Source: an uncultured Actinomycetota bacterium (GTDB lineage: Bacteria; Actinomycetota; Actinomycetes; JAHEKZ01). Taken from it: 64,000 nt of DNA. The stretch's first letter is position 1, and each line of letters begins with the position of its first letter. Below are positions 24,234-60,254 of this stretch, piece by piece. The DNA lies in contig CAVSDB010000001.1 of assembly GCA_963726755.1 (NCBI GenBank), positions 429,127 through 493,126 of the forward strand, given 5' to 3'. The notes beneath the pieces were generated by a model that did no database searches, was not told the origin of the DNA, and worked only from the letters and a program-made list of their open reading frames with translations. The position numbers and the translations under genes were made by a program.

Positions 24234-25161
24234 CTAGTCGACGTGCAGCACCACCTTGCCGGGCACCGTTCGGGCCAGCAGCTCGCTCACCACCGGCATC
24301 GGGTCACGCCACGACGTCTCTTTCACGATCTGCGGATCGAGCTTGCCAGACGCAACTAGACCTACCAACCCGTCCAGCTGCTTAGTTCCCAGTCGACGCT
24401 GCGCAACCTCGGTGAAAACCAGCAGACCTTCGACTCGCGCACCTGAATGCGCACCGAACCAGCCAGAGTCGACTTGCGCCGGCTTCGCCCGAAGAACGTC
24501 CGTACGTCACCAGGGTTCCCTCGTCGGACAGCACTTCCATTGAACGAGCCAACGAAGCCCCGCCCACTGACTCAAGGATGACGTCGTATCGACCCGTTGC
24601 GTGTTCGATTCCGACTACGACCTCGTCCGCGCCAAGCTCGCGAAGTCCGTCAACGCGCTCGGGGCGTCCGACAACCGCTGTGACCTGAGCCCCGGAGAGC
24701 CGGGCCAACTGAATGGCCAACCTTCCGACGCCACCCGCACCACCGGTAATCAGGACCCGTCGACCAAGCAAGAACCCACCAAGCTCCAAGGCACGCCACG
24801 CTGTCAAGCCCGCGATCGGCAGCACGCTTGCGGCCGCGTACGAAACTTCGTCAGGTAGGACGCTCATCGCGTGCGTTGGTACGCAGACCAGCTCAGCCCA
24901 TGCGTGACCGTCAACAATTCCGACGACCCGTTGACCGCTGCTCGGACCGGATCCATCGGCAGCCGACTCGACAACATCACCGGCGACGTCCCAACCCAAG
25001 ACCTGACCCGGATCTTCGTCGCGAAGGTGCGCGACCTCTCCCCGGTTAACCGAGGTGGCACGCAACCTCACCACTGCTTCGTTGGAGCGAGGACTTGGCT
25101 CAGCTACGTCGACAAGCGCAAGACCGCTCCCGTCCACGCCTGTTGTTGCCAATGCCTTCAT
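24234..25161 (-). CDS. zinc-type alcohol dehydrogenase / quinone oxidoreductase (MDR family), apparent 1-nt frameshift near 24460
   Basis: MKALATTGVDGSGLALVDVAEPSP...GGAGGVGRLAIQLARLSGAQV. The C-terminus ..AQVDSGWFGAHSGARVEGLLVFTEV...GKVVLHVD* is in the other frame and ends at 24234. Confidence 0.75.
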
Positions 25162-25220
25162 GAAGTGTGAACCTATCTGGACGAGGTAGCGCAGCAATAG
25201 CGGCTAGGTTCCAGGGAACG

Positions 25221-36170: not shown

Positions 36171-36187
36171 GTCGCCGGGCGGTTGAT

Positions 36188-37846
36188 CTAGGGCAGAACC
36201 CTCAGGACCAGGGAACTGGGAGTGACCTCGCTGGAAGTAAGAACTTGCGTGCTCTTCGTCGTCTCGACTGCCGTCCAGCGGTTCTCGCCGGTGCCGGGGT
36301 GGGGCACAAATTCGGGGTAGTCGCTGCTGAACAATGCCAGGCAAAGGCTGTGCCCAGGTTGGACTCGGTAGCCAACGTGACCCATCTCGATGCTGACGGG
36401 AGCACGACCACTCGGATCGTGGAGCGTGGCCTGCCCACGTACGACTAGCCGCGCCGAGCCGTCCGGTGCAACATCGAACAGTTTGGCGAAGACATCCGTG
36501 GACGGAGCGGTGGACGAGACGGTTACCCGCAGTTCCACCGGGCCGGCCACATCGAGGGGGTTGGCGAACGCCGCAGACACAAAACTCAGCACGTCCGGCC
36601 GTTCGAGCATGCTGTGCTCGTCCGGGTACCAGCGCAGGAACGCGAACGAGTCCTCAACGGAGGAAGGCACCAGGTCGCCGGGATCGTGAACCCACGAAGC
36701 GACGTCGCCCTCAGCTGCGATTGCATCGCCGAGAACTCCGCGTCCCACCTGAGCATCAGACAGGTTGGACAGGAGAAGGAGCACCTCGGTCGCCTCTGGC
36801 GGTGGCCAGCTGGATGACTCCCGGTATCCGGCGTGACCGAGGTGCCACGAGACTTTGGGGATGGAGTCCTCGGAGCGGATCCCCTTGAGGAAGACGTCGA
36901 AGAAGTCGAGCGCCGGTGTCACGTATTTGACCATCAGTCGGTCTATTGCGGATTCACTCACGAGGTGGTCGTCCATGGGCTGGATCGGCGCATCTGACAG
37001 GTGGTAGTTCTCGTGATCCACCGAGTCCGCGGATAGGTACTGGTGCTTGGCCCAGTCGCTTCGATTCGAAAGTGTGCAGTAGTCGCGCATCGAGGGGATG
37101 AGGATGTTGTCGAACCAGCCAACAACATGCAGAACGGGCACTGGCGAGGCGTCGAAAGGGTGCCCGAACGGGAACGAGTCGATGGCCTGAGCCTTAGGCA
37201 CCAGCTTGTCGTAGAGGCGGGAACGTGCCCCGATGCGGACGAACGCCTCCTCGAAGATCGCGGTGATCGGTCGTCGGTCATAGTCCAACGGAAAGTCCTG
37301 GATCTCGTTGTCCACCCAGTAGTGCGCTAGGTAGTCAGCGGCCACCAACCAGGGCACATCCGACGTGGCTCCGTGGGTTGGCTCCCGGAACAGATCCGCA
37401 CTCGTCACCCGCGGGACGATCGCCTTCAATGCCGGATGCTCGGCACTGAGAGCAGCCCACTGCGTGAAGCCGTAGTACGAGTCACCGAACATCCCCACGA
37501 CTCCGTTGGACCATTGCTGCTGCGTGATCCACTCGATGGAGTCGTATCCGTCTTCGCACTCGTTCACCAAACCGACGGTCTCGCCGCCGGACCGGAACTT
37601 TCCGCGAACGTCCTGAACGACGACCGCGTAGCCACGAGATGTGAAGTGAGGTGCGACTCGGTCCATTAAGACGTATCGGCTGTCCTTGTCATAGGGGAGT
37701 CGGACCAAGACGGTCTCCACCGCTGTGTCTTCCGCCGGCAGGTACACATCTGACGCGATCGCGACACCGTCTCGCATGGGAACCATGTACTGCGTGGCGT
37801 TCGGAGGCACCGGCTCAGCCTTGACCCGAATCACATCTTCACCCAT
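36188..37846 (-). CDS. CocE/NonD-family hydrolase (S15 X-Pro dipeptidyl-peptidase fold)
   Basis: 552 aa. ..VLVRLPYDKDSRY...GYAVVVQDVRGKFRSGGE...GMFGDSYYGF.. is typical of the family. Confidence 0.75.
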   Translation of the reverse strand: MGEDVIRVKAEPVPPNATQYMVPMRDGVAIASDVYLPAEDTAVETVLVRLPYDKDSRYVLMDRVAPHFTSRGYAVVVQDVRGKFRSGGETVGLVNECEDGYDSIEWITQQQWSNGVVGMFGDSYYGFTQWAALSAEHPALKAIVPRVTSADLFREPTHGATSDVPWLVAADYLAHYWVDNEIQDFPLDYDRRPITAIFEEAFVRIGARSRLYDKLVPKAQAIDSFPFGHPFDASPVPVLHVVGWFDNILIPSMRDYCTLSNRSDWAKHQYLSADSVDHENYHLSDAPIQPMDDHLVSESAIDRLMVKYVTPALDFFDVFLKGIRSEDSIPKVSWHLGHAGYRESSSWPPPEATEVLLLLSNLSDAQVGRGVLGDAIAAEGDVASWVHDPGDLVPSSVEDSFAFLRWYPDEHSMLERPDVLSFVSAAFANPLDVAGPVELRVTVSSTAPSTDVFAKLFDVAPDGSARLVVRGQATLHDPSGRAPVSIEMGHVGYRVQPGHSLCLALFSSDYPEFVPHPGTGENRWTAVETTKSTQVLTSSEVTPSSLVLRVLP

Positions 37847-37867
37847 TCCGAACCTCCTGCGGTGAAT

Positions 37868-38488
37868 CTAACCAATGACGGCAGGAGCCAGACCCGATTC
37901 GGCGAGCAAGGCTTCGACCAAGGCGTCGTGTTCGCCCCGAACGAGGTCACCGATGGGGTCAGGGCTGTACTTCAACAAGTGGTCGGGGGACAGCGACATC
38001 GCCGCACGCATCGCGAGAAGGCGGCGCCGCTCCGGGTCGTGCTCGTCCCGGTAGACCAGCCGTCCGCAGCGCAAGCGTCGGGCTTGGCCGACGCGCAGTG
38101 GGATGTAGAGGACGAGCAGGATCAACGCCGGAATCGCGAACGTCAGCAGTCCGAGCGCAAGGGCGAGGCGGTGGATGGCGGTATCGCCGGTGAGCGCCAG
38201 CTCAACCACATTGCCGCCACTCGCGGAGCCAGCAGAGCGCAGTGCGCCTGCGATCTCGTCACCTACGACCGGGGTTCCGGAGAGTGCGTCCGCAGCAGCA
38301 CCGAAACTGTTCTGGAGAGCCGTTCCGGCGCTTTGGGCAGAGTCGGTAACCACGCTGAGGTTCTCGACGAGCCGGTAGACGCCTCGACCCAGCCACGCGA
38401 GGAAGATCAGAGCGAGCACGACCAAAACATCACGTGCGATCGTTGACCGCCGCTGTCTTGGTTCTGAGGGGTAGGGGGACCAGGACAC
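37868..38488 (-). CDS. hypothetical membrane protein
   Basis: 206 aa, two hydrophobic segments. No motif. Confidence 0.35.
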   Translation of the reverse strand: MSWSPYPSEPRQRRSTIARDVLVVLALIFLAWLGRGVYRLVENLSVVTDSAQSAGTALQNSFGAAADALSGTPVVGDEIAGALRSAGSASGGNVVELALTGDTAIHRLALALGLLTFAIPALILLVLYIPLRVGQARRLRCGRLVYRDEHDPERRRLLAMRAAMSLSPDHLLKYSPDPIGDLVRGEHDALVEALLAESGLAPAVIG

Positions 38489-38536
38489 GGCAGACCTCCA
38501 GCAGGTCGGGTTACGGCGGGACGATGACTGTTCTGG

Positions 38537-38902
38537 TCAAAGCGTGCCTGGCGCGACCTGGCAACTCGACGAGCGGGTCACGAAGTGCCGTTCGTCGCCT
38601 GCGGCTAGCGAGAACCCTTCCGGCGGGCCGTCGGCGACGTCGAGCAGGAACTGATCGTGACCCCATGCCTTATCGAGTTGGTAGTCGATGTAGAACGGGC
38701 AGCCGTCGATCTCACCGAGTAGCACGTCGCCGTCACCTACAAGGAACTCGCCGTCGGGGTAGCACATCGGTGTGCTTCCGGCACAACAACCGCCGGATTG
38801 TACGAACATCACTGAGCCCCCGACCGCGGCGCGCAGGCCGTTGATGGCACTGCGCGCCGCCGGGGTAGCCGTGATGCGGACCGGCTCAACCGTTTGAGAC
38901 AT
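38537..38902 (-). CDS. DUF779-domain protein (common partner of aldehyde dehydrogenases)
   Basis: ..VMFVQSGGCCAGSTPMCYPDGEFLVGDGDVLLGEIDGCPFYID.. It lies immediately downstream of the aldehyde dehydrogenase on the same strand. Confidence 0.7.
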   Translation of the reverse strand: MSQTVEPVRITATPAARSAINGLRAAVGGSVMFVQSGGCCAGSTPMCYPDGEFLVGDGDVLLGEIDGCPFYIDYQLDKAWGHDQFLLDVADGPPEGFSLAAGDERHFVTRSSSCQVAPGTL

Positions 38903-38908
38903 AGAGAC

Positions 38909-40429
38909 TCAGAACAGTCCGAGCGGCTTGGTGCTGTAACTGACGAGCAGGTTCTTCGTCTGGCTGTAGTGGTCGAGCATCATGCGGTGGTTCTCCCGCC
39001 CTATGCCGGAGATCTTGTAGCCGCCGAATGCCGCGCCTGCTGGGTACTCGTGGTAACAGTTCGTCCACACCCGACCCGCCTTGATCTTGCGACCCATCGT
39101 GTAGGCGCGTGAACCGTCACGTGTCCACACTCCGGCCCCGAGACCGTAGAGGGTGTCATTGGCAATCTCGAGTGCTTCGGCGTCGTCCTTGAAGGTGGTG
39201 ACGGCGAGCACCGGCCCGAAGATCTCCTCCTGGAACACGCGCATCTTGTTGTGTCCCTTGAGCACAGTCGGCTGGAAGTAGTACCCGTCGGCAAATTCGC
39301 CGCCGACCTGAGCACGTTCGCCGCCAATGAGCACCTCGGCACCTTCGTTCTTGCCAATCTCGACGTAGGACGTGATCTTCTCCAACTGCTGAGCAGATAC
39401 CTGAGCTCCAAGCTGGGTATCGGTGTCCAGTGGATTGCCCTGCTTGATGGCTGCGATGCGGCCAAGGGCACGTGCCATGAACTCGTCGTAGATGTCCTGC
39501 TGGATGAGTGCCCTTGACGGGGCCGTGCAAACCTCACCCTTGTTGAAGGCGTAGAGCACGAGACCCTCGACGGCCTTGTCTAGGAACTCATCATCGTGGG
39601 CCATCACGTCGCTGAAGAAGATGTTCGGCGACTTGCCGCCGAGTTCGACGGTTGACGGGATGAGGTTCTGTGCTGCGTACTGCATGATCAGCCTGCCGGT
39701 CACGGTCTCGCCGGTGAAGCCGATCTTGGCGATTCGTGAGTTCGTCGCGAGCGCTTTGCCGATCTCGGCACCTGGACCGTTGACGACGTTGATGACACCT
39801 GGTGGCAAGACGTCCTCGAGGATCTCCATGAGCTTGAGGATCGACCACGGAGTCGGCGATGCCGGCTTCATGACCGAGCAGTTGCCAGCCGCGAGCGCGG
39901 GTGCGAGCTTCCAGGCCGCCATGAGTAGTGGGAAGTTGAACGGGATGATCTGGCCGACGACGCCTAGGGGCTCGCGGAAGTGATACGCGATGAGATCTTT
40001 GTTGATCTCGGTCGAGCGACCTTCTTCGGAGCGAGCCGCAGCAGCGAAGTACCGGAAGTGATCCACGACTAGCGGCAGGTCAGCGCCCAGAGTCTCGCGG
40101 ACCGGCTTGCCGTTCTCCCAGCTTTCGGCGACAGCGAGCATCTCCTTGTTGGCGTCGATCGCGTCGGCGATGGCGTTGAGCACCGCGGAGCGTTCGGTGG
40201 CTGAGGCTTCGCCCCATGCATCCTTCGCGGCATGTGCTGCGTCCAGAGCCAACTCAATGTCAGCGGGAGTGGACTGTGCGATCTCGGCGATCGGGCGAGC
40301 GGTGGCTGGGCTCAGGTCTACTCGATACTTCCCATCTGTTGGTGCGAGCCACTTTCCCCCGATGAAGTTGTCATACCGAGGGTTGACAGTGACGATGCTT
40401 TCCGATTGACCGGGGGCGGCGTACTTCAT
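38909..40429 (-). CDS. aldehyde dehydrogenase (acetaldehyde dehydrogenase-like)
   Basis: 506 aa. ..[27 protein letters not shown].. and Cys ..[12 protein letters not shown]... Reasonable RBS (AAGGGAGAAC) upstream. Confidence 0.85.
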
Positions 40430-40609
40430 GACGTTCTCCCTTGTTCCTGTAGGAATTGGGCCTCGTCGTAGACGGGGCGACCCCCGCGCGTGTGCCGATC
40501 GGCAGCGGCGCAGGGCGCCTAACCCCCATCAGACCCGAACAGTAGGGAGGAGGTGAGAGGCGAAGGTCCCCCTTGTTTGGAGGCGCCGCTCCGCTGGAAG
40601 AGTGTACGG

Positions 40610-41362
40610 CTAGCGATATTCGGGGTTTGGGTGGTCTGGGTCCTCGAGGTTCCAGTTGAACGTCACGTTGCCCTGGGCAGGAAGTCCGCCCGCGTCTTTG
40701 AGCGCTCGTGCGGTGTGCAGCAGATTCCATGCGGCGAACACGGTGTTGCGCGTTGTCCAGTGGTTCTGCGCTCCGCGGTTGTCGTCCAGATACGACGGAC
40801 CGGGACCAGCTTCCCCGTTCCAGTAGGAGTCTGACTGCGGTGGGATTGTGAAGCCGATGTGTTGCAAGGCGTACATCATCTGCGCGGCGCAGTGCTTGCC
40901 GCCGTCCTCGTTGCCAGTGATGAGCACGCCGCCGGCCTTGCCGTAGTACGACCACTGACCTTTGTCGTTGAGATCGCTCGACCAGCCGTAGAGGCGTTCG
41001 ATGATCAGGCGGGTCGTCGACGCTTGGTCGCCGAGCCAGATCGGTGTCGCGAGTACGACGATGTTGGCTGGCTCGATGAGGCTTCGGTAGATGTCCGGGA
41101 AGTCGTCGACTGGCCAGCCCTGCTCTCGCATGTCGGGGTAGACGCCGGGAGGAATGACGTGATCGACCGTGCGCACGACGTCAACCTTTGCGCCGACTCC
41201 AGCCATGATGTGCTGACTGATATCGATCAGCGCCTGAGTGTGGCTGATTTCAGGTGACCGCTTGAGGGTTCCGTTGATGAAGACGGCTCTCAGATCCGAG
41301 AAGTCGGTGGTGTTCGACGCGATCTCGGAGTCAATGAAGGCTTGGACTGAGGCGGGCAGCAT
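40610..41362 (-). CDS. flavodoxin-like fold NAD(P)H-dependent oxidoreductase (FMN reductase-like)
   Basis: 250 aa. ..IVVLATPIWLGDQASTTRLIIERL.. pattern. Confidence 0.6.
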   Translation of the reverse strand: MLPASVQAFIDSEIASNTTDFSDLRAVFINGTLKRSPEISHTQALIDISQHIMAGVGAKVDVVRTVDHVIPPGVYPDMREQGWPVDDFPDIYRSLIEPANIVVLATPIWLGDQASTTRLIIERLYGWSSDLNDKGQWSYYGKAGGVLITGNEDGGKHCAAQMMYALQHIGFTIPPQSDSYWNGEAGPGPSYLDDNRGAQNHWTTRNTVFAAWNLLHTARALKDAGGLPAQGNVTFNWNLEDPDHPNPEYR

Positions 41363-42491: not shown

Positions 42492-43982
42492 CTAGGGACG
42501 CACCACGCGGAACAGGCTCATGTCCTTGCTGATCGCGCCACGCACGTGTCCGTACGGTGCCGCCGCCGTCTTCCGCAAGAAGTCGACCGTCTCGGTGTTG
42601 ACGACCTCGCCAGGGAGCAAGTTCGGGATCCCCGGCGGATAGGCCGCAACTGCGTCGGCTGAAACTCGTCCGACGGCGTTGGCTGCGCTGACGATCTCGG
42701 TTTCAGCAAAGTACGCATCGCGGACCGAAGTTGCTCGCTCACCAGGAGTTGGCAACTCGATGTGTGCGGTGCTGTCGACGCCATCGGCTGGCAGGCGGTG
42801 CATTGCATCGAGCAGTCGATCAACGTCCGGAACCGCACCGGCGCCGACAACCGCGACCAGAACAGCGTCGGTCGACATTTCGAGGTGAATGTTGTGCTCG
42901 GTGAAGAGCAGGTGACGAGCCTCGTGGCCACTGATGCCGCCGGCGCGAGTGTCCATGACAACCCGCAGTGGGTCGAGGGACATGACGTCGTCGAAGGCGA
43001 GCATGCGCTCGTCGATCGAGCCGTAGCGACCTTCGGCTGCTAGGCGGCCGCGAATCTTGTCGACGCAGCCGAGGCTCGCGGTGATGGCTGTCGCACCGTT
43101 GACGGCCATCTGCTTGCGGGCTTGATCCAGCGACGCCATAAGCAGAGCGGACGAGGACGTTGACTGCATCGACCTGAACGAACGCTCGATGAGTGGCTCG
43201 AGACGGTCGGCGAATTCGCCGTGACCGAGGTGCAGCATCGCCGACTGGGTAAGGGATCCCGCAAGTTTGTGCGTCGACGAGATGACCAGGTCGGCGCCTA
43301 GGCGAAGTGCGTTTTGTGGCAGCTCGGGGTGGAAACCAAAGTGCGCGCCCCACGCTTCGTCAACGACGAGTGGCACGCCGTGCATGTGCGCGACCTTCGC
43401 GAGCCCAGCGACATCTGCGACGGCGCCGAAGTACGACGGGGTCACTACGTAGGCGGCGGCAGCGTTCGGGTTAGCGAAGAGGGCGGTGTCTAGAGCTTCT
43501 GGCGTTACACCGTGCGCGATGCCGTACTCCGCGTCAACGCTGGGGTAAACGAACGACGCGTCGAGGCCCGCGAGGGCGAGTCCGTCAATGACGGACGAGT
43601 GGACGCTGCGCTGCAGCACGATTTGTGTACCGAGTCCGCGGACTGCGAGGCAGGCAACGAGGTTGCCCTTGCTTGCGCCGTTGGTGAGGAACCAAGTGCG
43701 TCGCGCACCCCACGCTTGCGCGGCTAGGTATGCCGACTGACTCAGCGGAGTTGGTGCGTCACCGAAGTCGATGCCGTGGGTCAGCGGCGGGATGTCGAGC
43801 CGAACTGCCTGCTCGCCAAGAAACTCGATGAGCCCGGGCTGGGCATCGTGCGATGCCTGGTGACCGGGGACGCCAAGCCGAAGGATGTCGGTGTTGGCGT
43901 TCGCCTCGAGTGCGTCGCTGTACGGCGTGCAGGTTTGGTCGAGGCCGGGGATGTTGGCCGCCAAGGAGTCGTGAGGGGTCAT
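42492..43982 (-). CDS. PLP-dependent Orn/Lys/Arg decarboxylase-family enzyme
   Basis: ..VISSTHKLAGSLTQSAML.. (PLP-lysine region). About 497 aa from MTPHDSLAANIPG. Confidence 0.75.
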   Translation of the reverse strand: MTPHDSLAANIPGLDQTCTPYSDALEANANTDILRLGVPGHQASHDAQPGLIEFLGEQAVRLDIPPLTHGIDFGDAPTPLSQSAYLAAQAWGARRTWFLTNGASKGNLVACLAVRGLGTQIVLQRSVHSSVIDGLALAGLDASFVYPSVDAEYGIAHGVTPEALDTALFANPNAAAAYVVTPSYFGAVADVAGLAKVAHMHGVPLVVDEAWGAHFGFHPELPQNALRLGADLVISSTHKLAGSLTQSAMLHLGHGEFADRLEPLIERSFRSMQSTSSSALLMASLDQARKQMAVNGATAITASLGCVDKIRGRLAAEGRYGSIDERMLAFDDVMSLDPLRVVMDTRAGGISGHEARHLLFTEHNIHLEMSTDAVLVAVVGAGAVPDVDRLLDAMHRLPADGVDSTAHIELPTPGERATSVRDAYFAETEIVSAANAVGRVSADAVAAYPPGIPNLLPGEVVNTETVDFLRKTAAAPYGHVRGAISKDMSLFRVVRP

Positions 43983-44067
43983 AGGTATAAGAGTCGACGA
44001 TTTAAGAAGCAAAGACAAGGGGGTGACTATCTGCCTCCGCTCAATACTGGGTATGTAGCATAGACGC

Positions 44068-44970
44068 ATGCTCGATCTAAGACAGTTGTCGGTTCTTGAG
44101 GCGGTTGCGCGCGAAGGCTCAATGGCGGGGGCTGCTCGATCCCTGCACTACAGCCAGCCCACAGTGGCCCACCACCTCGCGGCCCTGGAGTCTCACTTGG
44201 GTGTCGCTCTGGTGACTCGGACTACTCGCGGAGCGACGCTAACTGAACTCGGCCAACTGTTCCTCGGTCACGCGAGCGCGGTACTGGATCGACTCGCTTC
44301 TGCAGAGGCTGAGGTCAAGGCGCTGGCTCAGCACGGGGTGGTAACTCTTCGCGTCGGAACGTTTCCGACCGCCGGGGCGCACGTGTTGCCTCACGCGGTC
44401 GCGGCGACGCTCGTGCGCACCGAAGTCCGTATCGAACTTCTGGAAGCCGAGACCACCGAGCTGATCGAACGACTTGATGCACGCGAATTGCACTGTGCGC
44501 TCGTCTACGACGACCCGGATGCTCCGATGCTTGTTCGCGAAGACTTAGCCATCACTGCGTTGTTCGACGATCCGTTTCTCGTGGTACTGCCTGCAAGTCA
44601 TCGCTTGGCATCCGCTGAATCGATCCGGCTTGGGGATCTTGCCGATGACGGTTGGATGATGTCGCGCGACATTGACGAGCCCGCGGACCAATCGCTGAGA
44701 GCAGCATGTGCCGTTGAGGGGTTCGTACCGCGTCCGGTATTGCGCACCGACGACTACGACGTGATGTTCGGCTTCGTTGCTGCAGGCGTCGGTGTCGCGT
44801 TGGTTCCGCAGATGGCGATCGTCGAGCGTGAAGGCGTGGTTGTTCGACCACTCGCAGGTGCCAAACTGCGACGAACGGTGATGTTCGTTATGCATCCAGA
44901 CGATTCACCCCCGGCTGCCAAAGCATTGCTAGCGGCGCTGCGGGCTAGTGCTGTAACGCTGTCGGCTTAG
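44068..44970 (+). CDS. LysR-family transcriptional regulator, divergent from the decarboxylase
   Basis: MLDLRQLSVLEAVAREGSMAGAARSLHYSQPTVAHHLAALE (HTH), followed by a LysR substrate-binding domain. Confidence 0.85.
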   Translation: MLDLRQLSVLEAVAREGSMAGAARSLHYSQPTVAHHLAALESHLGVALVTRTTRGATLTELGQLFLGHASAVLDRLASAEAEVKALAQHGVVTLRVGTFPTAGAHVLPHAVAATLVRTEVRIELLEAETTELIERLDARELHCALVYDDPDAPMLVREDLAITALFDDPFLVVLPASHRLASAESIRLGDLADDGWMMSRDIDEPADQSLRAACAVEGFVPRPVLRTDDYDVMFGFVAAGVGVALVPQMAIVEREGVVVRPLAGAKLRRTVMFVMHPDDSPPAAKALLAALRASAVTLSA

Positions 44971-45158
44971 CCAGACTTGCGTCGGAACTCGCGCTTGCCG
45001 CCGTGCTGGTGAGTGTCCGGCTTCCCGTGAGTCGACTCGCCGCCACGACCTCCGCCGACCCCGTCGGCACCCTGCTGCTTCTTACGCTCCAGCGCCTCGC
45101 GGTACTTGTCTTTGGGATCGTCCCTGCCCGGTGTGGGCTTGGTCTCGTCGGTAGCCAT
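44967..45158 (-). CDS. small conserved actinobacterial protein (DUF5302-like), Lys/Arg/Gly-rich
   Basis: MATDETKPTPGRDDPKDKYREALERKKQQG... 63 aa. Confidence 0.45.
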   Translation of the reverse strand: MATDETKPTPGRDDPKDKYREALERKKQQGADGVGGGRGGESTHGKPDTHQHGGKREFRRKSG

Positions 45159-45193
45159 AGCTACACATTACCCCCGAGGATTAGTGGGATTCA

Positions 45194-45209
45194 GGCGCCA
45201 TGTGGCGCC
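45194..45209. promoter_or_regulatory. inverted repeat GGCGCCA-TG-TGGCGCC in the 164-bp region upstream of the Pls-like synthetase gene
   Basis: 7-bp perfect arms with a 2-bp spacer, 113 bp upstream of the TTG start. A second, longer-range inverted pair AGTGGGA (45184-45190) / TCCCACT (45250-45256) flanks it. Confidence 0.3.
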
Positions 45210-45321
45210 ACCGTTCCGCCCGTCAACCGGTCCGCGGAGTCGTCCCACTCACGTGCGGTCCACGTCCGAGCGGCGATAATCGAGGTGGACGGCCCCGTCG
45301 GATCCAAGATGCGAGAACTCG

Positions 45322-48300
45322 TTGACTCTGCTCCGCGCACGTTACGCGCCCGACCCTCGTACTTTGGTCGACATCTTCCAGAGCACGGTGGATGAGTATC
45401 CGGATGATCCTGCGATCGACAACGGCGCCGATGTTCTTACCTATCTCGAGTTCTATGAGAGCGCCGAGGAACTCGCCACAGCACTCAACGGCCTCGGCGT
45501 CGGGCCTGGGGACCGTGTAGGCGTCCGAATCAAGTCCGGCACGGTCGACCTTTACATAGCAATCATGGGCGTCCTCCTGTCAGGAGGGTGCTACGTCCCA
45601 GTGGACGCCGACGATCCGGACGAACGAGCCCGCATGGTCTTCGACGAGGCTGACGTAGCGGCAATCATCGGCAACGACCTGGCCGTCACCACCCGCGGAG
45701 CAAAACGAGCTGAGGTGACTGCTGTAGTCCCCGAGCCCGACGACGACGCCTGGGTGATCTTTACCTCCGGCTCTACCGGAAGACCCAAGGGGGTCGCAGT
45801 CTCGCACCGCTCGGCGGCGGGTTTCGTCGAAGCTGAAGCACGTCTGTATCTCCAGGAACGACCGTTGGGAGTTGGCGACCGAGTGATGGCCGGTCTGTCG
45901 GTCGGTTTCGACGCATCGTGCGAAGAGATGTGGCTCGCGTGGCGATACGGCGCTTGCCTGGTTCCAGCGCCTCGTTCGCTGGTACGCAGTGGCATGGACC
46001 TCGGTCCATGGCTAGTCGCGAATGACGTGACAGTGGTCTCGACCGTCCCCACTTTGTTGATGTTGTGGCCGTCCGAGGCGCTTGCCAACATTCGCCTACT
46101 GATCCTCGGAGGCGAGGCATGTCCACCCGAGATCGGCGCGAGGTACGCGTCCCCCGACCGTGAGGTGTGGAACACCTACGGGCCAACCGAGGCAACTGTG
46201 GTTTCGTGCGCCGCCAGATTGACAGGCGAACCGCCGGTGCGAATAGGACTGCCCCTCGACGGCTGGGATCTCGCCGTCGTCGATGAAGGCGGCAGCAGCG
46301 TTAACCCCGGTGAAACCGGCGAGCTCATCATCGGCGGCATCGGGCTGGCCCGGTACTTAGACCTCGAGAAGGACGCCGAAAAGTTCGCTGAAATGCCAAC
46401 ACTTGGTTGGTCGCGCGCCTACCGCAGCGGCGATCTGGTTCGGTACGACGAGGAGGGGTTGGTTTTCGTCGGACGAGCCGACGACCAAGTCAAGCTCGGA
46501 GGTCGTCGCATCGAGTTGGGTGAAGTCGACAGCGCGCTGCTCGACCTGCCGGGAGTCACCGGCGCCGCGGCCGCGGTACGTAGAACCAAATCGGATAACC
46601 AGATCCTGGTCGGATACATCGTCGTTGATGCGGCCTTCGACGCTGCGATCGCCATGGAACAGTTGCGTGCCAGCATGCCTGCCGCGATGGTGCCACGTCT
46701 GGCCCAGGTTGAGCAGATACCGACGAAGACCTCGGGGAAAGTCGACCGCGATGCGCTGGCTTGGCCCCTAGCGCGCGTCAAGTCCGAAGCCGCCGAGACT
46801 CGCTTCGAAGGCACTGCTGGCTGGGTTCAGGACATCTGGATGGACGTCCTCGGAGCGGTAGTCACCAGCGCCGCGGACGACTTCTTCGATCTGGGCGGAG
46901 GCAGTCTGACGGCTGCCCAACTGGTGGCCAGGTTGCGTGAGCGTTTTCCGGAAGCCACAGTTGCCGATGTCTACGAGCACCCCACAATCGGTGGACTCGC
47001 GGCGACTCTGGACTTGATGGCCGGCCCGACGACGAAGACCAACCGACCGGTGCGTCCGGTGCCGCTGAAGACACAAGTCAGCCAGGTAGCCCTCACTTTC
47101 GGTTTGCGCACCGTTAGTGGGCTGAGGTGGCTTATTTGGATCGCAGCCGCGAACAACGTGAGCAGTTCGGTCCTCGGGGTCAACTGGCTTCCGACGGTCT
47201 CGTGGTGGTGGGTGCTGGCCGGGTGGTTGCTGTTGGTGTCTCCGCCTGGCCGCATTCTGCTCACCGCAACCGGTGCGCGCATATTGCTGCGTGGCATTGC
47301 TCCCGGTGGGTACCCCAGGGGCGGACTCGTGCACCTGCGCGTCTGGCTTGCCGAGCGCGTGGCAGACGAACTGGGTGCGGCGAACCTCGCTGCGGCGCCG
47401 TGGATGCGGCAGTACGCGCGTGCGCTCGGTGCAACCATCGGAGGTCACGTCGACCTTCACTCGACTCCACCCATCACCGGCATGCTCAGGCTCGATGCTG
47501 GGTGCACGATCGAGCCCGAAGTCGACTTGCGGGGTTACTGGATCGACGGCGAGGTCCTCCACGTTGGTCGAATGGAGGTTGGCGCGGGAGCTCGAGTTGG
47601 CGCTCGGAGCATGCTTCTTCCGGGGGCGTCAATCGGCGCGGGCGCGGAGATTGCGCCAGGCTCGGCCGTCTTCGGTGAGGTCCCGGCGGACGAGGCTTGG
47701 TCGGGCGCCCCTGCTCAGCCAGTCGGTGAAGCCAGGGGTCCTTGGGAACAAACGCGGCCGAACAACCAGCCGATGTGGGTGGTGGGCTACGCCGCGATGG
47801 CGGTACTCATCTCGACCTTCCCCCTCATCGCAGTTGTTGCGGGCGGGGCGTTGGCGGTGCCGGCCCTTCGCTCAGCGGCGTCCCTGCACGACGCCACCCT
47901 CACCGCACTGGTCTACCTCCCGGTTTGCGTGGTGCTGGCGATGTTGGTTCTGGCAATTCTCATCTGGCTGCTGGTGCGACTGCTCTCGATTGGCCTCGAG
48001 GGCGGGCATCACCCTGTGCAAAGTCGAGCGGCGTGGCAGGCATGGTCGATTCTGCGGGTGCTCGATGAGGCGCGAAACTGGTTGTTTCCGCTCTACTCCA
48101 GCACGCTGACGCCCTCGTGGCTACGTGCGCTTGGAGCGCGAGTTGGGTCAAACGTCGAGGCGTCCACTGTGTTGTTGATCCCCACCCTCACTTCCATCAG
48201 CGATGGCGCTTTCCTCGCTGACGACACCTTGCTCGGTGGGTACGAACTCAGCGGGGGGTGGCTGCGAATAGAGCGGGTAAAGGTCGGCAAGCACGCTTTC

Positions 48301-49185
48301 GTGGGCAATTCGGGGATGACCGCTCCTGGGCGCAAGGTCCCTAAGAGGGGTTTGGTCGCCGTACTATCGGCCGCGCCACGGCGTAAACATGCCAAGAGCG
48401 GAACGTCGTGGATCGGCAGCCCACCCACGAAACTTCGACGACAGTCAAGCTCTGTCGATGACAGCCGGACGTATAACCCGTCGACGGGGCTGCGGTTCGC
48501 GCGATCTGGGATCGAGTTGCTTCGTGTCGTCGCGGTCATCTCCTATGCAGCGATCTGCCTCGCCGTCGTTGTCACGCTCGAAGCGCTCGTGACGAGCGTG
48601 GGGTGGCTTCTGGCAGCACTGCTGTCCGGCGTGGTGCTGATTGGTGCAGGTGCCGTTGCAGCCGGAGTAACCGCGGTCGCGAAGTGGTTGCTCGTTGGGC
48701 GGATGCGTGTCTCCGACCATCCACTGTGGAGTTCGTTCGTATGGCGAAATGAGCTTGCGGACACGTTCGTCGAAGTTGTTGCTGCACCATGGTTCGCCCG
48801 CGCCACGATCGGAACGCCCGTTCTCAACCTATGGTTTCGTTCGATGGGGGCAAGGATCGGCAAAGGCGTGTGGTGTGACACGTACTGGCTCCCGGAGGCC
48901 GACCTGATCGAGCTGCGCGACGGAGTGACGATCAACCAGGGCTGTGTAATACAAACCCATCTGTTCCATGACCGCATGCTCAGCATGGACAAAGTGACGA
49001 TGCGCGACGGTTCCACGCTTGGCCCGAACAGCGTCATCCTGCCAGCGGCCGTCTTGGGTCGGCACGCTACCGTCGGGCCGGTGTCGCTGGTGATGAGAGG
49101 CGAATTCGTGCCTGACAAGACCCGTTGGATCGGCAATCCCATCGGTCCTTGGCTCCCGGACGAGATCGTGGATACGTCGCGATGA
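45322..49185 (+). CDS. Pls/PosA-family single-module non-ribosomal peptide synthetase: A domain, T domain, three tandem membrane-embedded C-terminal domains. Candidate homopoly(amino acid) (epsilon-poly-L-lysine-type) synthetase.
   Basis: 1287 aa, intact. The A-domain cores are FTSGSTGRPKGV, FDAS, NTYGPTE, GELIIGG, YRSGDL and TKTSGKVDR. The carrier motif is FFDLGGGSLTAAQL. The remainder is about 650 aa with paired TM helices separating three hexapeptide/beta-helix-like soluble domains. There is no condensation or thioesterase domain. TTG start at 45322. Confidence 0.85.
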   Translation: MTLLRARYAPDPRTLVDIFQSTVDEYPDDPAIDNGADVLTYLEFYESAEELATALNGLGVGPGDRVGVRIKSGTVDLYIAIMGVLLSGGCYVPVDADDPDERARMVFDEADVAAIIGNDLAVTTRGAKRAEVTAVVPEPDDDAWVIFTSGSTGRPKGVAVSHRSAAGFVEAEARLYLQERPLGVGDRVMAGLSVGFDASCEEMWLAWRYGACLVPAPRSLVRSGMDLGPWLVANDVTVVSTVPTLLMLWPSEALANIRLLILGGEACPPEIGARYASPDREVWNTYGPTEATVVSCAARLTGEPPVRIGLPLDGWDLAVVDEGGSSVNPGETGELIIGGIGLARYLDLEKDAEKFAEMPTLGWSRAYRSGDLVRYDEEGLVFVGRADDQVKLGGRRIELGEVDSALLDLPGVTGAAAAVRRTKSDNQILVGYIVVDAAFDAAIAMEQLRASMPAAMVPRLAQVEQIPTKTSGKVDRDALAWPLARVKSEAAETRFEGTAGWVQDIWMDVLGAVVTSAADDFFDLGGGSLTAAQLVARLRERFPEATVADVYEHPTIGGLAATLDLMAGPTTKTNRPVRPVPLKTQVSQVALTFGLRTVSGLRWLIWIAAANNVSSSVLGVNWLPTVSWWWVLAGWLLLVSPPGRILLTATGARILLRGIAPGGYPRGGLVHLRVWLAERVADELGAANLAAAPWMRQYARALGATIGGHVDLHSTPPITGMLRLDAGCTIEPEVDLRGYWIDGEVLHVGRMEVGAGARVGARSMLLPGASIGAGAEIAPGSAVFGEVPADEAWSGAPAQPVGEARGPWEQTRPNNQPMWVVGYAAMAVLISTFPLIAVVAGGALAVPALRSAASLHDATLTALVYLPVCVVLAMLVLAILIWLLVRLLSIGLEGGHHPVQSRAAWQAWSILRVLDEARNWLFPLYSSTLTPSWLRALGARVGSNVEASTVLLIPTLTSISDGAFLADDTLLGGYELSGGWLRIERVKVGKHAFVGNSGMTAPGRKVPKRGLVAVLSAAPRRKHAKSGTSWIGSPPTKLRRQSSSVDDSRTYNPSTGLRFARSGIELLRVVAVISYAAICLAVVVTLEALVTSVGWLLAALLSGVVLIGAGAVAAGVTAVAKWLLVGRMRVSDHPLWSSFVWRNELADTFVEVVAAPWFARATIGTPVLNLWFRSMGARIGKGVWCDTYWLPEADLIELRDGVTINQGCVIQTHLFHDRMLSMDKVTMRDGSTLGPNSVILPAAVLGRHATVGPVSLVMRGEFVPDKTRWIGNPIGPWLPDEIVDTSR

Positions 49186-50495
49186 ACACCGCCCCGTCGG
49201 AGGTTGTTGACGACTACTTCCCGGAGAACGGTGACCTGTCGTACGACGTGCGCAGTTATGACTTGACCATCGACTACAAGCTTGAGTCGAACCAGTTAGA
49301 CGGGCGAGCAGTTCTCGAAGCCGTTGCACGCACTGACATCAACGAACTGTCTCTCGATCTGCGTGGGCTCAGGGTATGGAAGGTCAATCTCGACACAGTT
49401 CCGGTTGCGAGATTCTTGACCAGGCACGGCAAACTCATCATCCGCACGAAGGAGGTGATCGAGCAGGGGGAAGTGTTCCGGGTCTGGGTTCGGTATAGCG
49501 GCCGACCGAAGCCGATTCCCGATGGCGGCGACGAGATGGGTTGGGACGAACTCACCGACGGGGTCATCGTGGCTGGCCAGACGAACGGCGCACCTTCCTG
49601 GTTTCCATGCAACGACCGCCCGGCTAACAAGGCGAGCTATCGCATCGCCGTCACCACCGCTTCTGCGTACCACGTCGTGGCGAATGGAACTCTCGTCAGT
49701 CGTCATCGAGGGGCGAGCGCGACCACGTGGGTTTATGAGCAACGCGAACCCATGGCCACGTATCTCGCCACGGTCCAGATCGGACGCTATGTCTCACGGC
49801 CGACAGCCAGCTCGCCGGTTCCGACGACCGCTGTCCTACCCGAGCGACTCCTCCGCTACTACGACAGCGCCTTCGGCCGCCAACCAGAGATGTTGGACTT
49901 CTTCGTCCGACGGTTCGGGCCGTATCCCTTTCCGGCGTACACGGTGGTCATCACCGAGGACGAACTCGAGATTCCTCTCGAAGCTCAAGGTCTCTCGGTG
50001 TTTGGATCCAACTTTCTCTCCGACGACTGGGACGTCGTGAGGTTGGTCGCTCACGAACTCGCACATCAATGGTTCGGCAACAGCCTCACGCTCACGACCT
50101 GGCGTGACATCTGGCTGCACGAAGGGTTCGCCTGCTACTGCGAGTGGTTGTGGTCGGAGGAGTCCGGAAACCGTTCCGCGGATGAGTGTGCGGTCGAGCA
50201 TTGGAATCGGCTGGCCGATGGACGGCAAGACGTCGAGCTCGCGGATCCGGGGCCGGACGCCATGTTCGAGGACTGGGTATACAAGCGAGGAGCACTATTG
50301 CTCCACTCGTTACGACTGACGATTGGTGACGACACGTTCTTCGAACTGCTTCGAGAATGGGTGGCGCGCAACTCTCATGGGTCGGTCACGACCGAGATGT
50401 TCATCAACCTCGCCGAGCAAGTTTCCGAGCGGGACCTCAGGAGCTTCTTTGCGCGTTGGCTGAACCAACTGGAGTTACCAGATCTGCCCGTCTAG
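49182..50495 (+). CDS. short M1-family zinc metallopeptidase (no C-terminal ERAP domain), translationally coupled to the synthetase
   Basis: HELAHQWFGNSLTLTTWRDIWLHEGFACY (HExxH plus E zinc site). About 438 aa from MNTAPSEV. The ATG overlaps the synthetase stop TGA (ATGA at 49182-49185). Confidence 0.8.
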   Translation: MNTAPSEVVDDYFPENGDLSYDVRSYDLTIDYKLESNQLDGRAVLEAVARTDINELSLDLRGLRVWKVNLDTVPVARFLTRHGKLIIRTKEVIEQGEVFRVWVRYSGRPKPIPDGGDEMGWDELTDGVIVAGQTNGAPSWFPCNDRPANKASYRIAVTTASAYHVVANGTLVSRHRGASATTWVYEQREPMATYLATVQIGRYVSRPTASSPVPTTAVLPERLLRYYDSAFGRQPEMLDFFVRRFGPYPFPAYTVVITEDELEIPLEAQGLSVFGSNFLSDDWDVVRLVAHELAHQWFGNSLTLTTWRDIWLHEGFACYCEWLWSEESGNRSADECAVEHWNRLADGRQDVELADPGPDAMFEDWVYKRGALLLHSLRLTIGDDTFFELLREWVARNSHGSVTTEMFINLAEQVSERDLRSFFARWLNQLELPDLPV

Positions 50496-51120
50496 CGACG
50501 AGCTCAGGCGGGTTCAGAGAGAGCACGGTCACGGCTGCTACATGCCCGCTCGTGGTTTCGAAGTCCATCATCCAGACCGACGTCTGAGGTGGGTCGGCAG
50601 CTGCCCACTCGACCAGGCCGGGCGGTTCGCCCGGGTCGGTGAGGAGTATCAGCCGAGGGTCGACTGTGAGACCCCGACCCGTGGCTTTGAGCAGGGATTC
50701 TTTGCGGACCCAAGTGATGGTCTCGGTAGCTCCAAACCGCAAACCCTCGTTTTCGTGCGCAACGACGGCATCGAAACCGGGAAACGAAGCCGCGTCGGAT
50801 CGTTCGACGTCCACGCCAACTTGGCCGGCTTCGGTGAGCGCAACCACCGTGAGGTCCTCGGCGTAGCTAATGCTCACATCAGGTAGCGGGAGCCCCGGGG
50901 TCGCAGCAAGTACCGGTCGACCATGCGTCGTGCTTCCGCACAATCCGCAGTGATTGGTCACGTGCGCGCCCCGACCAGGCACTCCGAGGCGTCGCAGTCC
51001 CTCACCGCAGATCATGCGACGAGCCGCCTCACGGTCGACCCCGGCACACCAAAGGACAACTACGAGTGTCGACTCCGATGTTCGGTCGAGATGGCGATTG
51101 CGCAACACGACGTCAGCCAT
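50437..51120 (-). CDS. Sfp-type 4'-phosphopantetheinyl transferase
   Basis: ..VSISYAEDLTVVAL.. and ..WVRKESLLKATGRGL.. match the PPTase motifs (SISH-like and W..KEA..K). 227 aa. Confidence 0.7.
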   Translation of the reverse strand: MADVVLRNRHLDRTSESTLVVVLWCAGVDREAARRMICGEGLRRLGVPGRGAHVTNHCGLCGSTTHGRPVLAATPGLPLPDVSISYAEDLTVVALTEAGQVGVDVERSDAASFPGFDAVVAHENEGLRFGATETITWVRKESLLKATGRGLTVDPRLILLTDPGEPPGLVEWAAADPPQTSVWMMDFETTSGHVAAVTVLSLNPPELVARRADLVTPVGSANAQRSS

Positions 51121-51463
51121 TCGTGGCGACAGTCACGACACCGTTCTCGACGTAGAGGTTCACACGGTCGGTTCGGTAGTCCATGGTCAGCGCGTAGCAG
51201 TCACCGTCCTTACCAGCCAGGCGTGTCGTGAGGTCCTGTTGCTTGGCGAGGTTCTTGGCGTCCGTTAGGGACAGGCCGATGAACTGTTGGGTGTCTACGC
51301 CCGGGGTCGCAACGTCCGACGATGGGCTGGTTAGGCAGGGACTGTCGGCCGCCGTGTCCGATTCTGACGGTGATGTCTGAGGTGTTGTGTCACCGGTGGA
51401 ATCGCTGTTCCCGCATCCGGTCATCAGGACTCCCACCGCCAAGACGATCGCGAGTTTGCGCAT
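51113..51463 (-). CDS. lipoprotein of the I78 peptidase-inhibitor family
   Basis: Signal peptide plus lipobox MRKLAIVLAVGVLMTGC. C-terminal ..FIGLSLTDAKNLAKQ...DGDCYALTMDYRTDRVNLYVENGVVT matches the Inhibitor_I78 (TMDYRxDRLN) signature. Confidence 0.6.
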   Translation of the reverse strand: MRKLAIVLAVGVLMTGCGNSDSTGDTTPQTSPSESDTAADSPCLTSPSSDVATPGVDTQQFIGLSLTDAKNLAKQQDLTTRLAGKDGDCYALTMDYRTDRVNLYVENGVVTVATNG

Positions 51464-58410: not shown

Positions 58411-58505
58411 GTCGTCCAGAATGCGCCATGTCAACGCAGTTGTCAACGCTGTTGACTATGTGTCGATAGGGACCAAAGTGCCTTGCCGCCCCGGATACGC
58501 GCTGC

Positions 58506-60254
58506 TTGAGTAAGCGCGTGCCCCCCAACTCCGGCCACACCGTGCGCGGACGGGTTCATTCAGGTGCCGGTGCGATTCCCGGCTGGTCGACGCTGACGTC
58601 GTATCACCGGGAGTGGCTGGGCAAGGATTTGATCGCCGGACTGGTGCTCACTGCGCTGTTGGTCCCGCAGGGGATGGCCTACGCCGAGCTCGCGGGCCTG
58701 CCGGCGATCACTGGCCTCTACACCTCGATCCTCTGTCTGCTCGGGTATGCCGTCTTCGGACCGTCGCGGGTACTTGTCCTTGGGCCCGACTCCGCACTCG
58801 GGCCGATGATTGCGGCGACGTTGGCACCGCTGCTGTTGGCCAATGGGGATCCCGATCGGGCCGTCGTGTTGGCGGCCGCCTTGTCGCTGATGGTTGGGGT
58901 CTTGATGACCGTGGCCGGCATCGCCAAGTTGGGGTTCGTTGCCGATCTGCTGTCGAAGCCCACGCAGATCGGCTATCTGAATGGCTTGGCCTTGGTCATC
59001 CTCGTCGGGCAATTGCCGAAGCTCCTTGGGTTCTCGATCGATGCGGGCGGGTTGGTCGACCAGACCTCCGAAACCCTGTCGGGCATCGCCGCGGGTGACG
59101 TGAACCGGTTCGCCGCCGCCATCGGCGTCCTTTCGCTGGTGACGATCGTCGTCATGCAGCGGTGGCTGCGCAAGGTTCCCTCGGTGTTGCTGGTGGTTGT
59201 GGTCGCATCGCTTGCGGTGAACTGGCTCAACCTCGTGGACGACGGGGTCCAGGTCGTCGGCGCGCTGCCGCAGGGATTGCCGTCGTTCTCCTTTCCCAGT
59301 GTCAAGGTCGCAGATCTCCAGCCGCTGTTTCTTGGCGCACTAGCCATCGTCCTCGTCGCGCTGGCGGACACGATCACTACGGCCACGGCCTTCGCATCAA
59401 GAAGAGGCGAGCGGGTCCGGGGCAATCAGGAGATGGTGGGGATCGGGGCGGCGAACATCGCGACCGGTCTGTTCGGCGGGTTCTCCGTCAGCACCAGTGC
59501 GTCGCGGTCGGCCGTCGCGGATCAAGCTGGTTCGCGGACCCAGCTAACTGGAGTGATTGGTGCATTGGCGATTGCCGCCCTCTTGGTCTTCGCCCCCGCG
59601 CTGACTCGCTATGTGCCTCAGGCGACGTTGGCAGCGGTCGTGATCGCCGCAGCGTTTTCGCTCGCCGACCTCGGAGCGATCCGCAGACTGTGGCGACAGC
59701 GCCGAACAGAGTTCGCTTTGGCTATTGCGGCCTTCCTCGCCGTGGCGTTCTTCGGAGTTCTTGTGGGGATCGGTATTGCCGTCGCACTGTCGATCCTCAA
59801 TGTCTTCCGTCGCACTTGGTGGCCGCACCAGACCCAACTCGGTCGGGTCGAGGGACTGGCCGGATTGCACAGCACCGAGAGCCATCCGGAAGCCGTCACG
59901 CTCCCCGGGCTCGTGGTGTACCGGTTCGACGCGCCGCTGATCTTCGCCAACGCGCGAACCTTCGCCCATGAGGTACGCGAGTTGGTAAGGGATCAGCCGG
60001 AGTTGCAGTGGGTGGTCGTGGCTGCCGAACCGATCACCGACATCGACACCACAGCAGCAGACATGCTCGAGGAACTCGATGTTTGGCTCAATGATCGCGG
60101 GGTCTCGCTGGTGTTCGCCGAGATGAAGGACCCGGTGCGAGACAAAGTCGAGCGCTACGAACTCACTCGAACGATCGATCCCCACCACTTCTTCCCTACG
60201 GTGGAGGATGCGGTCGCGGAGTTCATCGCGGAATCGGGCCAGCATTGGCAGTAG
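58506..60254 (+). CDS. SulP-family anion transporter with a C-terminal STAS domain
   Basis: ..YHREWLGKDLIAGLVLTALLVPQGMAYAELAGLP.. SulP signature. STAS ..LVVYRFDAPLIFANARTF.. 582 aa. Confidence 0.85.
   Translation: MSKRVPPNSGHTVRGRVHSGAGAIPGWSTLTSYHREWLGKDLIAGLVLTALLVPQGMAYAELAGLPAITGLYTSILCLLGYAVFGPSRVLVLGPDSALGPMIAATLAPLLLANGDPDRAVVLAAALSLMVGVLMTVAGIAKLGFVADLLSKPTQIGYLNGLALVILVGQLPKLLGFSIDAGGLVDQTSETLSGIAAGDVNRFAAAIGVLSLVTIVVMQRWLRKVPSVLLVVVVASLAVNWLNLVDDGVQVVGALPQGLPSFSFPSVKVADLQPLFLGALAIVLVALADTITTATAFASRRGERVRGNQEMVGIGAANIATGLFGGFSVSTSASRSAVADQAGSRTQLTGVIGALAIAALLVFAPALTRYVPQATLAAVVIAAAFSLADLGAIRRLWRQRRTEFALAIAAFLAVAFFGVLVGIGIAVALSILNVFRRTWWPHQTQLGRVEGLAGLHSTESHPEAVTLPGLVVYRFDAPLIFANARTFAHEVRELVRDQPELQWVVVAAEPITDIDTTAADMLEELDVWLNDRGVSLVFAEMKDPVRDKVERYELTRTIDPHHFFPTVEDAVAEFIAESGQHWQ

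Follow-up and report, generated by a model that had tools for sequence, protein, structure and literature searches.

A stretch of actinobacterial DNA of 64,000 nucleotides (nt), here called the window, carries three adjacent genes at 45177-51111, and these very probably form a cassette for an epsilon-poly-L-lysine system orthologous to those of Streptomyces albulus and Corynebacterium variabile. They encode a polymer synthetase of the Pls/PosA family (its gene is called pls below), a zinc metallopeptidase of family M1 and a 4'-phosphopantetheinyl transferase (PPTase). The genes under study lie within 45159-51463. An earlier note on this DNA had described a locus of four genes here, the fourth encoding an inhibitor lipoprotein, and all four open reading frames (ORFs) were recovered, with their translations, where it had placed them. 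The cassette is composed as follows.

45177-51111: three-gene cassette of 5,935 bp, made up of the pls upstream region, pls, the M1 peptidase gene and the PPTase gene.
45322-49185, forward strand: Pls/PosA-family synthetase gene, predicted epsilon-poly-L-lysine synthetase; 1287 amino acids (aa), TTG start.
45328-46773, forward strand: adenylation (A) domain, synthetase residues 3-484; 60% identity to PDB 7wew.
46822-47010, forward strand: thiolation (T or PCP) domain, residues 501-563; Pfam PP-binding 53.7 bits, with Ser528.
47044-47766, forward strand: polymerisation unit 1, residues 575-815, with transmembrane (TM) helices TM1/TM2 and the C1 left-handed beta-helix, as predicted by hhalign, hydropathy and AlphaFold2.
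47767-48501, forward strand: polymerisation unit 2, residues 816-1060, TM3/TM4 and C2, predicted by the same three methods.
48502-49182, forward strand: polymerisation unit 3, residues 1061-1287, TM5/TM6 and C3, predicted by the same methods and Foldseek.
49182-50495, forward strand: two-domain M1 zinc metallopeptidase, positional orthologue of PldII; 437 aa, by Pfam.
50437-51120, reverse strand: Sfp-type PPTase; about 227 aa, start uncertain, by Pfam ACPS.

The ORF at 45322-49185 is a full-length synthetase of the Pls/PosA family. Four Pfam families were found on it (AMP-binding at residues 19-344, AMP-binding_C at 401-473, PP-binding at 501-563 and Hexapep at 752-783), with neither Condensation nor Thioesterase among them. 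The alignment of homologues shows a shared N-terminus, MTLLR, and an invariant carrier serine, S528, within DLGGGSL. Beyond the A-T didomain the protein matches the NCBIfam model TIGR02353 (Pls/PosA C-terminal domain) from end to end, residues 588-1274 covering model positions 3-695 of 695 with 701 bits against a cutoff of 423.1. This region is a threefold repeat: a self-BLAST did not find it, but profile-profile comparison by hhalign of residues 575-815, 816-1060 and 1061-1287 did, relating unit 1 to unit 2 with a probability of 97.8% and to unit 3 with 98.0%, the third and lowest probability being 92.7%. Hydropathy places three helix pairs at about 589-645, 817-886 and 1062-1120, of which the first is the least hydrophobic. 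Three pairs of long helices also appear in an AlphaFold2 model of residues 575-1287 (pTM 0.76), each pair followed by a helical segment and beta-strands; the helices of unit 1 are H8-44 and H54-81 of the model, and its beta-helix is modelled with low confidence. Foldseek matches of the model in the PDB are all hexapeptide-repeat acyltransferases, with weak scores. The predicted six TM helices in three pairs, separating three tandem beta-helix domains, follow an A-T didomain that lacks condensation (C) and thioesterase (TE) domains, and the same architecture has been described for Pls (PMC8117764) and modelled for PosA (PMC10522769). The earlier note had read the gene in just this way, and had said that a C-terminal 650 aa failing to align with Pls would overturn the reading. 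Pfam, hhalign, hydropathy and AlphaFold2 bear it out, and the alignment is end to end.

The substrate is indicated by the A domain. Its top match in the PDB is 7wew, the A domain of S. albulus Pls (about 608-610 bits; 60% identity across 487 residues by BLASTP), ahead of LgrA, the linear gramicidin synthase, at 391 bits and of the PosA A-domain structure at 204 bits. The closest characterised homologue is thus S. albulus Pls, and not a loading module of a non-ribosomal peptide synthetase (NRPS), the other outcome that the earlier note had named as fatal. The ten Stachelhaus positions were taken from the alignment with 7wew, with the GrsA numbering placed by what we take to be the motif anchors. 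They give the specificity code DAESIGTVVK (D197, A198, E201, S240, I261, G263, T285, V293, V294 and K473), which is identical at 10 of 10 positions to the lysine code of S. albulus Pls (PMC10522769, Supplementary Table 2). The code is invariant in the alignment of homologues and the same in 83 of 83 loci. Asp at position 1 and Glu at position 3 bind the alpha-amine and the side-chain amine of the cationic substrate (PMC10522769); the corresponding D197 and E201 are invariant. We therefore predict, by homology, that the enzyme is an epsilon-poly-L-lysine synthetase.

Another product would require a different cationic homopolymer (delta-poly-ornithine, poly-diaminopropionate (DAP) or poly-diaminobutyrate (DAB), epsilon-poly-beta-lysine or poly-arginine), or lysine joined by another linkage or to another length. 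The family does include enzymes of this kind (PMC10522769), and the C-terminal domains, which set linkage and chain length, are unreadable from sequence. We consider such a product unlikely nonetheless. Beyond the ten matching code residues, the enzymes for ornithine (Orn), DAB, DAP and beta-lysine have codes that differ from the lysine code, and position 2, proposed to set substrate length (PMC10522769), is Ala in the window as in the lysine enzymes; the residue there is Met in the Orn enzymes, Phe in those for DAP and DAB and Gly in those for beta-lysine. The A domain is 60% identical to that of Pls, whereas the A-core of PosA is only 36% identical to that of Pls, a gap mirrored in the bit scores on the two structures (608 for Pls, 204 for PosA). 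A PldII-type peptidase context has, moreover, been described as specific to pls loci (PMC8117764).

Such a peptidase gene stands directly downstream in the window. Its 437-aa product, present in exactly this form in a public protein collection, matches Peptidase_M1_N and Peptidase_M1 (52 and 109 bits, both over cutoffs) and carries HELAH at residues 291-295, Glu314 in the pattern HExxH-(18)-E and the catalytic Tyr in VYKRGA, so that the short M1 zinc peptidase of the earlier note was correctly named. The closest relative of solved structure is the two-domain M1 zinc metalloprotease 6a8z/6iff (155 bits), with residues 7-436 aligned to its residues 39-467 over the full length; like it, the window peptidase is without the C-terminal domain that classical aminopeptidase N has. 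We know of no link between the 6a8z/6iff protein and a polymer synthetase. Zinc ligands and Tyr are intact in all 78 complete orthologues (78/78). In contrast to the M1 aminopeptidases, the GxMEN exopeptidase motif is replaced in the same 78 by IP[LIV]E[AS]Q, which reads IPLEAQ in the window; the sequences with this replacement are the window peptidase and 77 orthologues (L001-L083), together with L084 11951-13330 and L085 12141-13484. By hydropathy the window peptidase has no hydrophobic segment able to serve as a signal peptide or TM helix, the threshold is exceeded in only 3 of the 78 orthologues, and the Streptomyces-type peptidases (L084 and L085) have neither a signal peptide nor a TM helix.

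Position and translation both tie the peptidase to the synthetase. The TGA of the synthetase and the ATG of the peptidase share ATGA at 49182-49185. In S. albulus pldII adjoins pls with an overlap that is likewise of 4 bp, in one operon (PMC4361855), and is translationally coupled to it (PMC9223678); the claim that the arrangement is that of Streptomyces stands. An orthologue of the peptidase directly follows the synthetase in 80 of the 81 loci that have downstream sequence, with a 4-nt overlap between its start and the synthetase stop in 36/80 and a 1-nt overlap in 18/80 (54/80 together). The association that the earlier note had made a test of its reading is therefore conserved. The sole exception among the 81 is L004 (11826-19825), where 8 kb of downstream sequence holds no M1 peptidase after the synthetase. 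In two loci of Streptomyces type, L084 and L085 (S. resistomycificus is the source of one), pls is directly followed by the same M1 gene; the peptidase there is 46-48% identical, and the synthetase 56% identical, to that of the window. In both of these records (L084 8001-11876 and L085 8001-12072) the gene calls split the pls homologue in two. The tblastn alignment runs through L084 pls in one frame, though the extracted stretch held one stop codon, and L085 pls aligns in two parts, as a frameshift would produce; these splits may be assembly errors or pseudogenes.

The third gene encodes a PPTase of the Sfp type, by its Pfam ACPS domain (29.1 bits against a cutoff of 25, a small margin), its motifs GVDVE and WVRKESLLK and its length of 227 aa, within the 220-240 aa or so of that type; the HetI and AusB models of NCBIfam match weakly, far under their cutoffs. 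Its 3' end and that of the peptidase gene are convergent and overlap by 59 nt. When all ORFs of 83 loci were searched iteratively, 21 of the loci were seen to have a homologue, always on the opposite strand and immediately after the peptidase, and usually overlapping its end. Among these 21 are the three closest of the relatives examined (their synthetases are 84%, 76% and 74% identical to that of the window), in each of which the gene upstream of the PPTase differs, as well as Nocardioides, Micropruina, Kocuria, Brachybacterium and Dermatophilaceae. The same search found no homologue in the Nocardia, Rhodococcus, Mycobacterium, Kribbella or Streptomyces-type loci. The Sfp-type PPTase convergent to the peptidase was thus rightly identified in the earlier note, by domain, motifs and position, but its linkage is limited to one clade.

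The limits of the cassette can be read from a related contig, L086, which holds a homologue (P0123) of the lipoprotein encoded beside the PPTase gene and runs collinear to the window, the DNA being 81-90% identical (blastn). One block, L086 4691-9313, corresponds to window 55761-51112 at 87.8% and contains the DAO/GCV_T, Pit and lipoprotein genes. A second, L086 11360-15924, corresponds to window 45176-40611 at 80.8% and contains the DUF5302, LysR, decarboxylase-fold and FMN reductase genes. Between the two, L086 has 2,046 bp with an ECF sigma factor gene and two ORFs, in place of which the window has the 5,935 bp of 45177-51111, that is, exactly pls, the peptidase and the PPTase. By blastn nothing between the L086 blocks aligns with the cassette. 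No repeats were found at the cassette junctions, and the GC content of the cassette (0.627) is that of its flanks (0.62-0.63). Since the lipoprotein gene stays with Pit in L086, where the pls cassette is absent from this site, the functional unit comprises three genes and not four. The lipoprotein belongs to a flanking Pit-lipoprotein gene pair.

The neighbour so excluded is the following.

51113-51463, reverse strand: lipoprotein with a domain of the CI-2 fold (I13/I78 superfamily), outside the module; 116 aa.

It had been described as an I78 peptidase-inhibitor lipoprotein belonging to the locus. The lipobox, LMTGC, and a fold of the I13/I78 superfamily are there, but Pfam Inhibitor_I78 (PF11720) has no match to the protein even at E<=10, and the best Pfam match, potato_inhibit, stays below threshold at 15.2 bits against a cutoff of 24.5. 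Among 38 relatives potato_inhibit matches weakly in 11 and I78 weakly in 5 (best 5e-4). A profile of the family finds LUTI, CI-2, BGIT and the I78 protein AFUEI in the PDB (E 0.002-0.1). The CI-2-like domain occupies the last 60 or so residues (about 55-116). AlphaFold2 models residues 61-116 with pLDDT 88-97, and Foldseek aligns the modelled domain to CI-2, eglin c and AFUEI with probability 1.0, target-normalised TM-scores of 0.6-0.7 and an rmsd of 2-2.5 A; the predicted fold is the alpha/beta fold of the CI-2 superfamily, with an exposed loop supported by two Arg. In the lipoprotein, LTMDYRTDRV aligns with what we take to be the reactive-loop region of CI-2, VTMEYRIDRV. Compared with CI-2 and eglin c (MEROPS I13) and AFUEI (I78), the window protein shares the fold in its C-terminal 60 aa and differs in being lipid-anchored, bacterial and under the Pfam cutoffs of both families; its inhibitor role is putative. 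An indexed protein search by short exact words returned three close homologues only, whereas by HMMER the domain of about 60 aa is widespread, with 838 representatives at E<=1e-3. Proteins may also carry it in tandem, up to the 11 copies of P0244, a protein of 2281 aa (family P0244-P0392); this bacterial family lies mostly under the Pfam I13 and I78 thresholds. A Cys pair, C43 and C89, is conserved among the close relatives of the lipoprotein.

One could still suppose a four-gene system in which the lipoprotein, as an I78 inhibitor, would keep the M1 peptidase in check or shield the polymer. Its gene is adjacent, its stop overlaps the annotated ATG of the PPTase, and its fold is of the right superfamily. 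We hold this to be very improbable. The lipoprotein was not found in any of the 85 other pls loci examined, and in L086 it remains beside Pit with other genes in place of pls, peptidase and PPTase, so its assignment to the locus in the earlier note is not upheld. As to the overlap, the annotated PPTase ATG falls inside the closing codons of the lipoprotein gene and is owed solely to a synonymous change, AAC to AAT relative to L086, at the last Asn codon of that gene (window 51112-51120, AATGGCTGA; L086 9300-9313, AACGGCTGA). Inhibitors of the I13 and I78 families act on serine endopeptidases, not on zinc metallopeptidases. Since its fold is that of a standard-mechanism serine-protease inhibitor, the lipoprotein would be an unlikely partner for a cytoplasmic zinc metallopeptidase, and it is exported while the peptidase has no export signal. 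Most probably it inhibits serine proteases outside the cell and has nothing to do with the pls system.

For the three-gene epsilon-poly-L-lysine cassette, the following course of events is suggested by homology with Pls at every step. The PPTase would convert the T domain, at Ser528, into its holo form. The A domain would adenylate L-lysine and load it onto the T domain as a thioester. The membrane region, with its three pseudo-symmetric units, would then repeatedly join the lysyl group to an epsilon-amine, either that of free lysine or that of the growing chain; the chain would be untethered from the enzyme, and the outcome would be a cationic isopeptide polymer. The M1 zinc peptidase, made in fixed proportion through translational coupling at ATGA, would, like PldII, trim or degrade the polymer, serving self-protection or turnover.

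Several points weigh against this reading. PldII activity has been placed on the outer face of the membrane (PMC9205021), with which a peptidase family devoid of export signals fits awkwardly. Orthology to PldII is strongly indicated, and the case for it is built from position, coupling and the two Streptomyces-type loci. The PPTase is barely over its Pfam cutoff, no PDB entry matches it by sequence, and its start is uncertain because the 227-aa product is absent from public gene calls. A consensus promoter scan recognised no promoter for pls. Lastly, C. variabile did not express its own pls natively (PMC8117764).

Relatives of the synthetase are numerous. A protein search returned about 8,000, of which the best 120 have 66-100% identity over the full length, and many carry the NCBI name Pls/PosA family NRPS. 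A scan of one genome per species gave at least 600 stretches, at least 599 of them confirmed as relatives; among the matches listed are Nocardioides, Nocardia, Rhodococcus, Mycobacterium, Kribbella, Kocuria, Brachybacterium, Tsukamurella and many metagenome-assembled genomes. The whole 1287-aa architecture is kept at 56-84% identity across hundreds of species, and TIGR02353 passes its cutoff end to end, which leaves practically no credit for an alternative in which an ordinary A-T protein, stand-alone or of the NRPS loading kind, is joined to a membrane acyltransferase unrelated to it and has no polymerase function: generic NRPS models do match the A-T part too, but far under their cutoffs (MxcG, for example, with 313 bits against 2300).

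Among the known systems, the Pls/PldII pair of S. albulus is the nearest to the window cassette. Both have the A-T didomain, six TM helices and C1-C3, the code DAESIGTVVK and a metallopeptidase gene immediately downstream with a 4-bp overlap. The window host differs in being a non-streptomycete with a GC content of about 62%; the 60% identity to Pls refers to the A domain. Streptomyces-type loci, unlike the window, have a YchJ-like gene after the peptidase and no PPTase. C. variabile offers a pls from a non-streptomycete actinobacterium, as in the window, in an operon with a peptidase and with the Pls-type code conserved (PMC8117764). Its Pls homologue, expressed in S. coelicolor, gave epsilon-poly-L-lysine of 26-35 residues (PMC8117764). 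That product is verified by heterologous expression in S. coelicolor only, whereas the window product is predicted from sequence. The delta-poly-L-ornithine synthetase PosA of Acinetobacter baumannii belongs to the same TIGR02353 family, and its C-terminal model has the same pseudo-threefold build of a helical bundle and three beta-helices (PMC10522769). It differs in its code, DMEHNGTVSK.

Pls homologues are widespread in coryneform genera (PMC8117764), and the pls-peptidase operon outside Streptomyces, with its distribution and product, is already published there. The earlier note, which rightly recognised a Pls-type locus, accordingly overrated its novelty. New here are the PPTase as a recurrent third gene in one clade (the term PPTase does not occur in PMC8117764), the ends of the cassette and the exclusion of the lipoprotein from the locus. 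The window adds one more predicted producer of epsilon-poly-L-lysine, from an actinobacterial lineage that is uncultured or little studied. Its practical value is modest, although synthetase, peptidase and PPTase make up a compact 5.9-kb unit that could be transferred intact to a heterologous host, and those who work on such polymers may find use in the in-cluster PPTase of 21/83 loci and in a coupled peptidase with no export signal and a changed exopeptidase motif. Neither the recurrence of the PPTase nor the features of the peptidase change the understanding of the system. We raise only tentatively, and with more doubt than belief, the idea of a self-sufficient pls/peptidase/PPTase cassette of non-streptomycetes that moves as a unit, is made portable by its PPTase and has a signal-less peptidase with altered GxMEN motif on the cytoplasmic side. 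If true, the cassette would be gained, lost or swapped as a whole in a clade of non-streptomycete Actinomycetota, its own PPTase would open the pathway to hosts without a compatible one, and the peptidase would differ in location from PldII, which is reported at the surface.

Upstream of the cassette genes lie two further features.

45159-45321, forward strand: pls upstream region, with GATAAT at 45275-45280 as a putative promoter element.
44967-45158, reverse strand: DUF5302 gene, divergent from pls; 63 aa, Pfam 49 bits.

The left edge, 45159, is the first base beyond the start codon of the DUF5302 gene. In the alignment of pls upstream regions, conservation is seen with the closest relative, L081 (84% identical), only. 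The stretch shared by the two (window 45270-45321; L081 about 9950-10000) reads GCGATAATCGA ... CGGATCC ... TGCGAG, and the -10-like GATAAT falls within it. Rfam recognised no riboswitch or other RNA near the locus, and terminator-like sites were not more numerous than in shuffled controls.

Just upstream of the cassette, at 42492-44970, the window has a pyridoxal phosphate (PLP) enzyme of the Orn/Lys/Arg-decarboxylase fold on the reverse strand and a LysR regulator on the forward strand. We considered both as members of the system and rejected them: they are kept in the flank of L086 and are unlinked to pls in 83 other loci, so their proximity to a lysine-polymer cassette looks coincidental. 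The DUF5302 gene adjoins LysR in L086 too and was not found beside pls in other loci. Searches of the pls loci by jackhmmer and tblastn gave no conserved linkage to pls for the lipoprotein, LysR, decarboxylase, Pit or DUF5302 genes. There are other indels between the window and L086, within window 33795-62320. Two window segments have no counterpart at the matching place in L086, about 58464-60233 (sulfate permease/STAS) and 36170-40610 (the Aldedh and DUF779 block), and the window in turn lacks a counterpart to the 314-aa gene at L086 3710-4690. Around the cassette the DNA is thus a patchwork of small gene blocks.

The earlier note had also stated that many genes of the window carry frameshifts, and had drawn on this in stressing that the synthetase gene is intact. 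A map of ORFs and of GC at third codon positions (GC3), in which long coding-like ORFs tile the window, gives the statement no support, nor does Pfam, and we found no basis for the argument built on it. For the pairs at 24571-25167 and 17699-18556 there is no Pfam match, so nothing there points to a frameshift. The flanking ORFs that were scanned gave mostly full-length Pfam matches and none that was truncated, and 37871-40528, a candidate set of frameshifts or in-frame stops, proved to be separate genes, Aldedh and DUF779.

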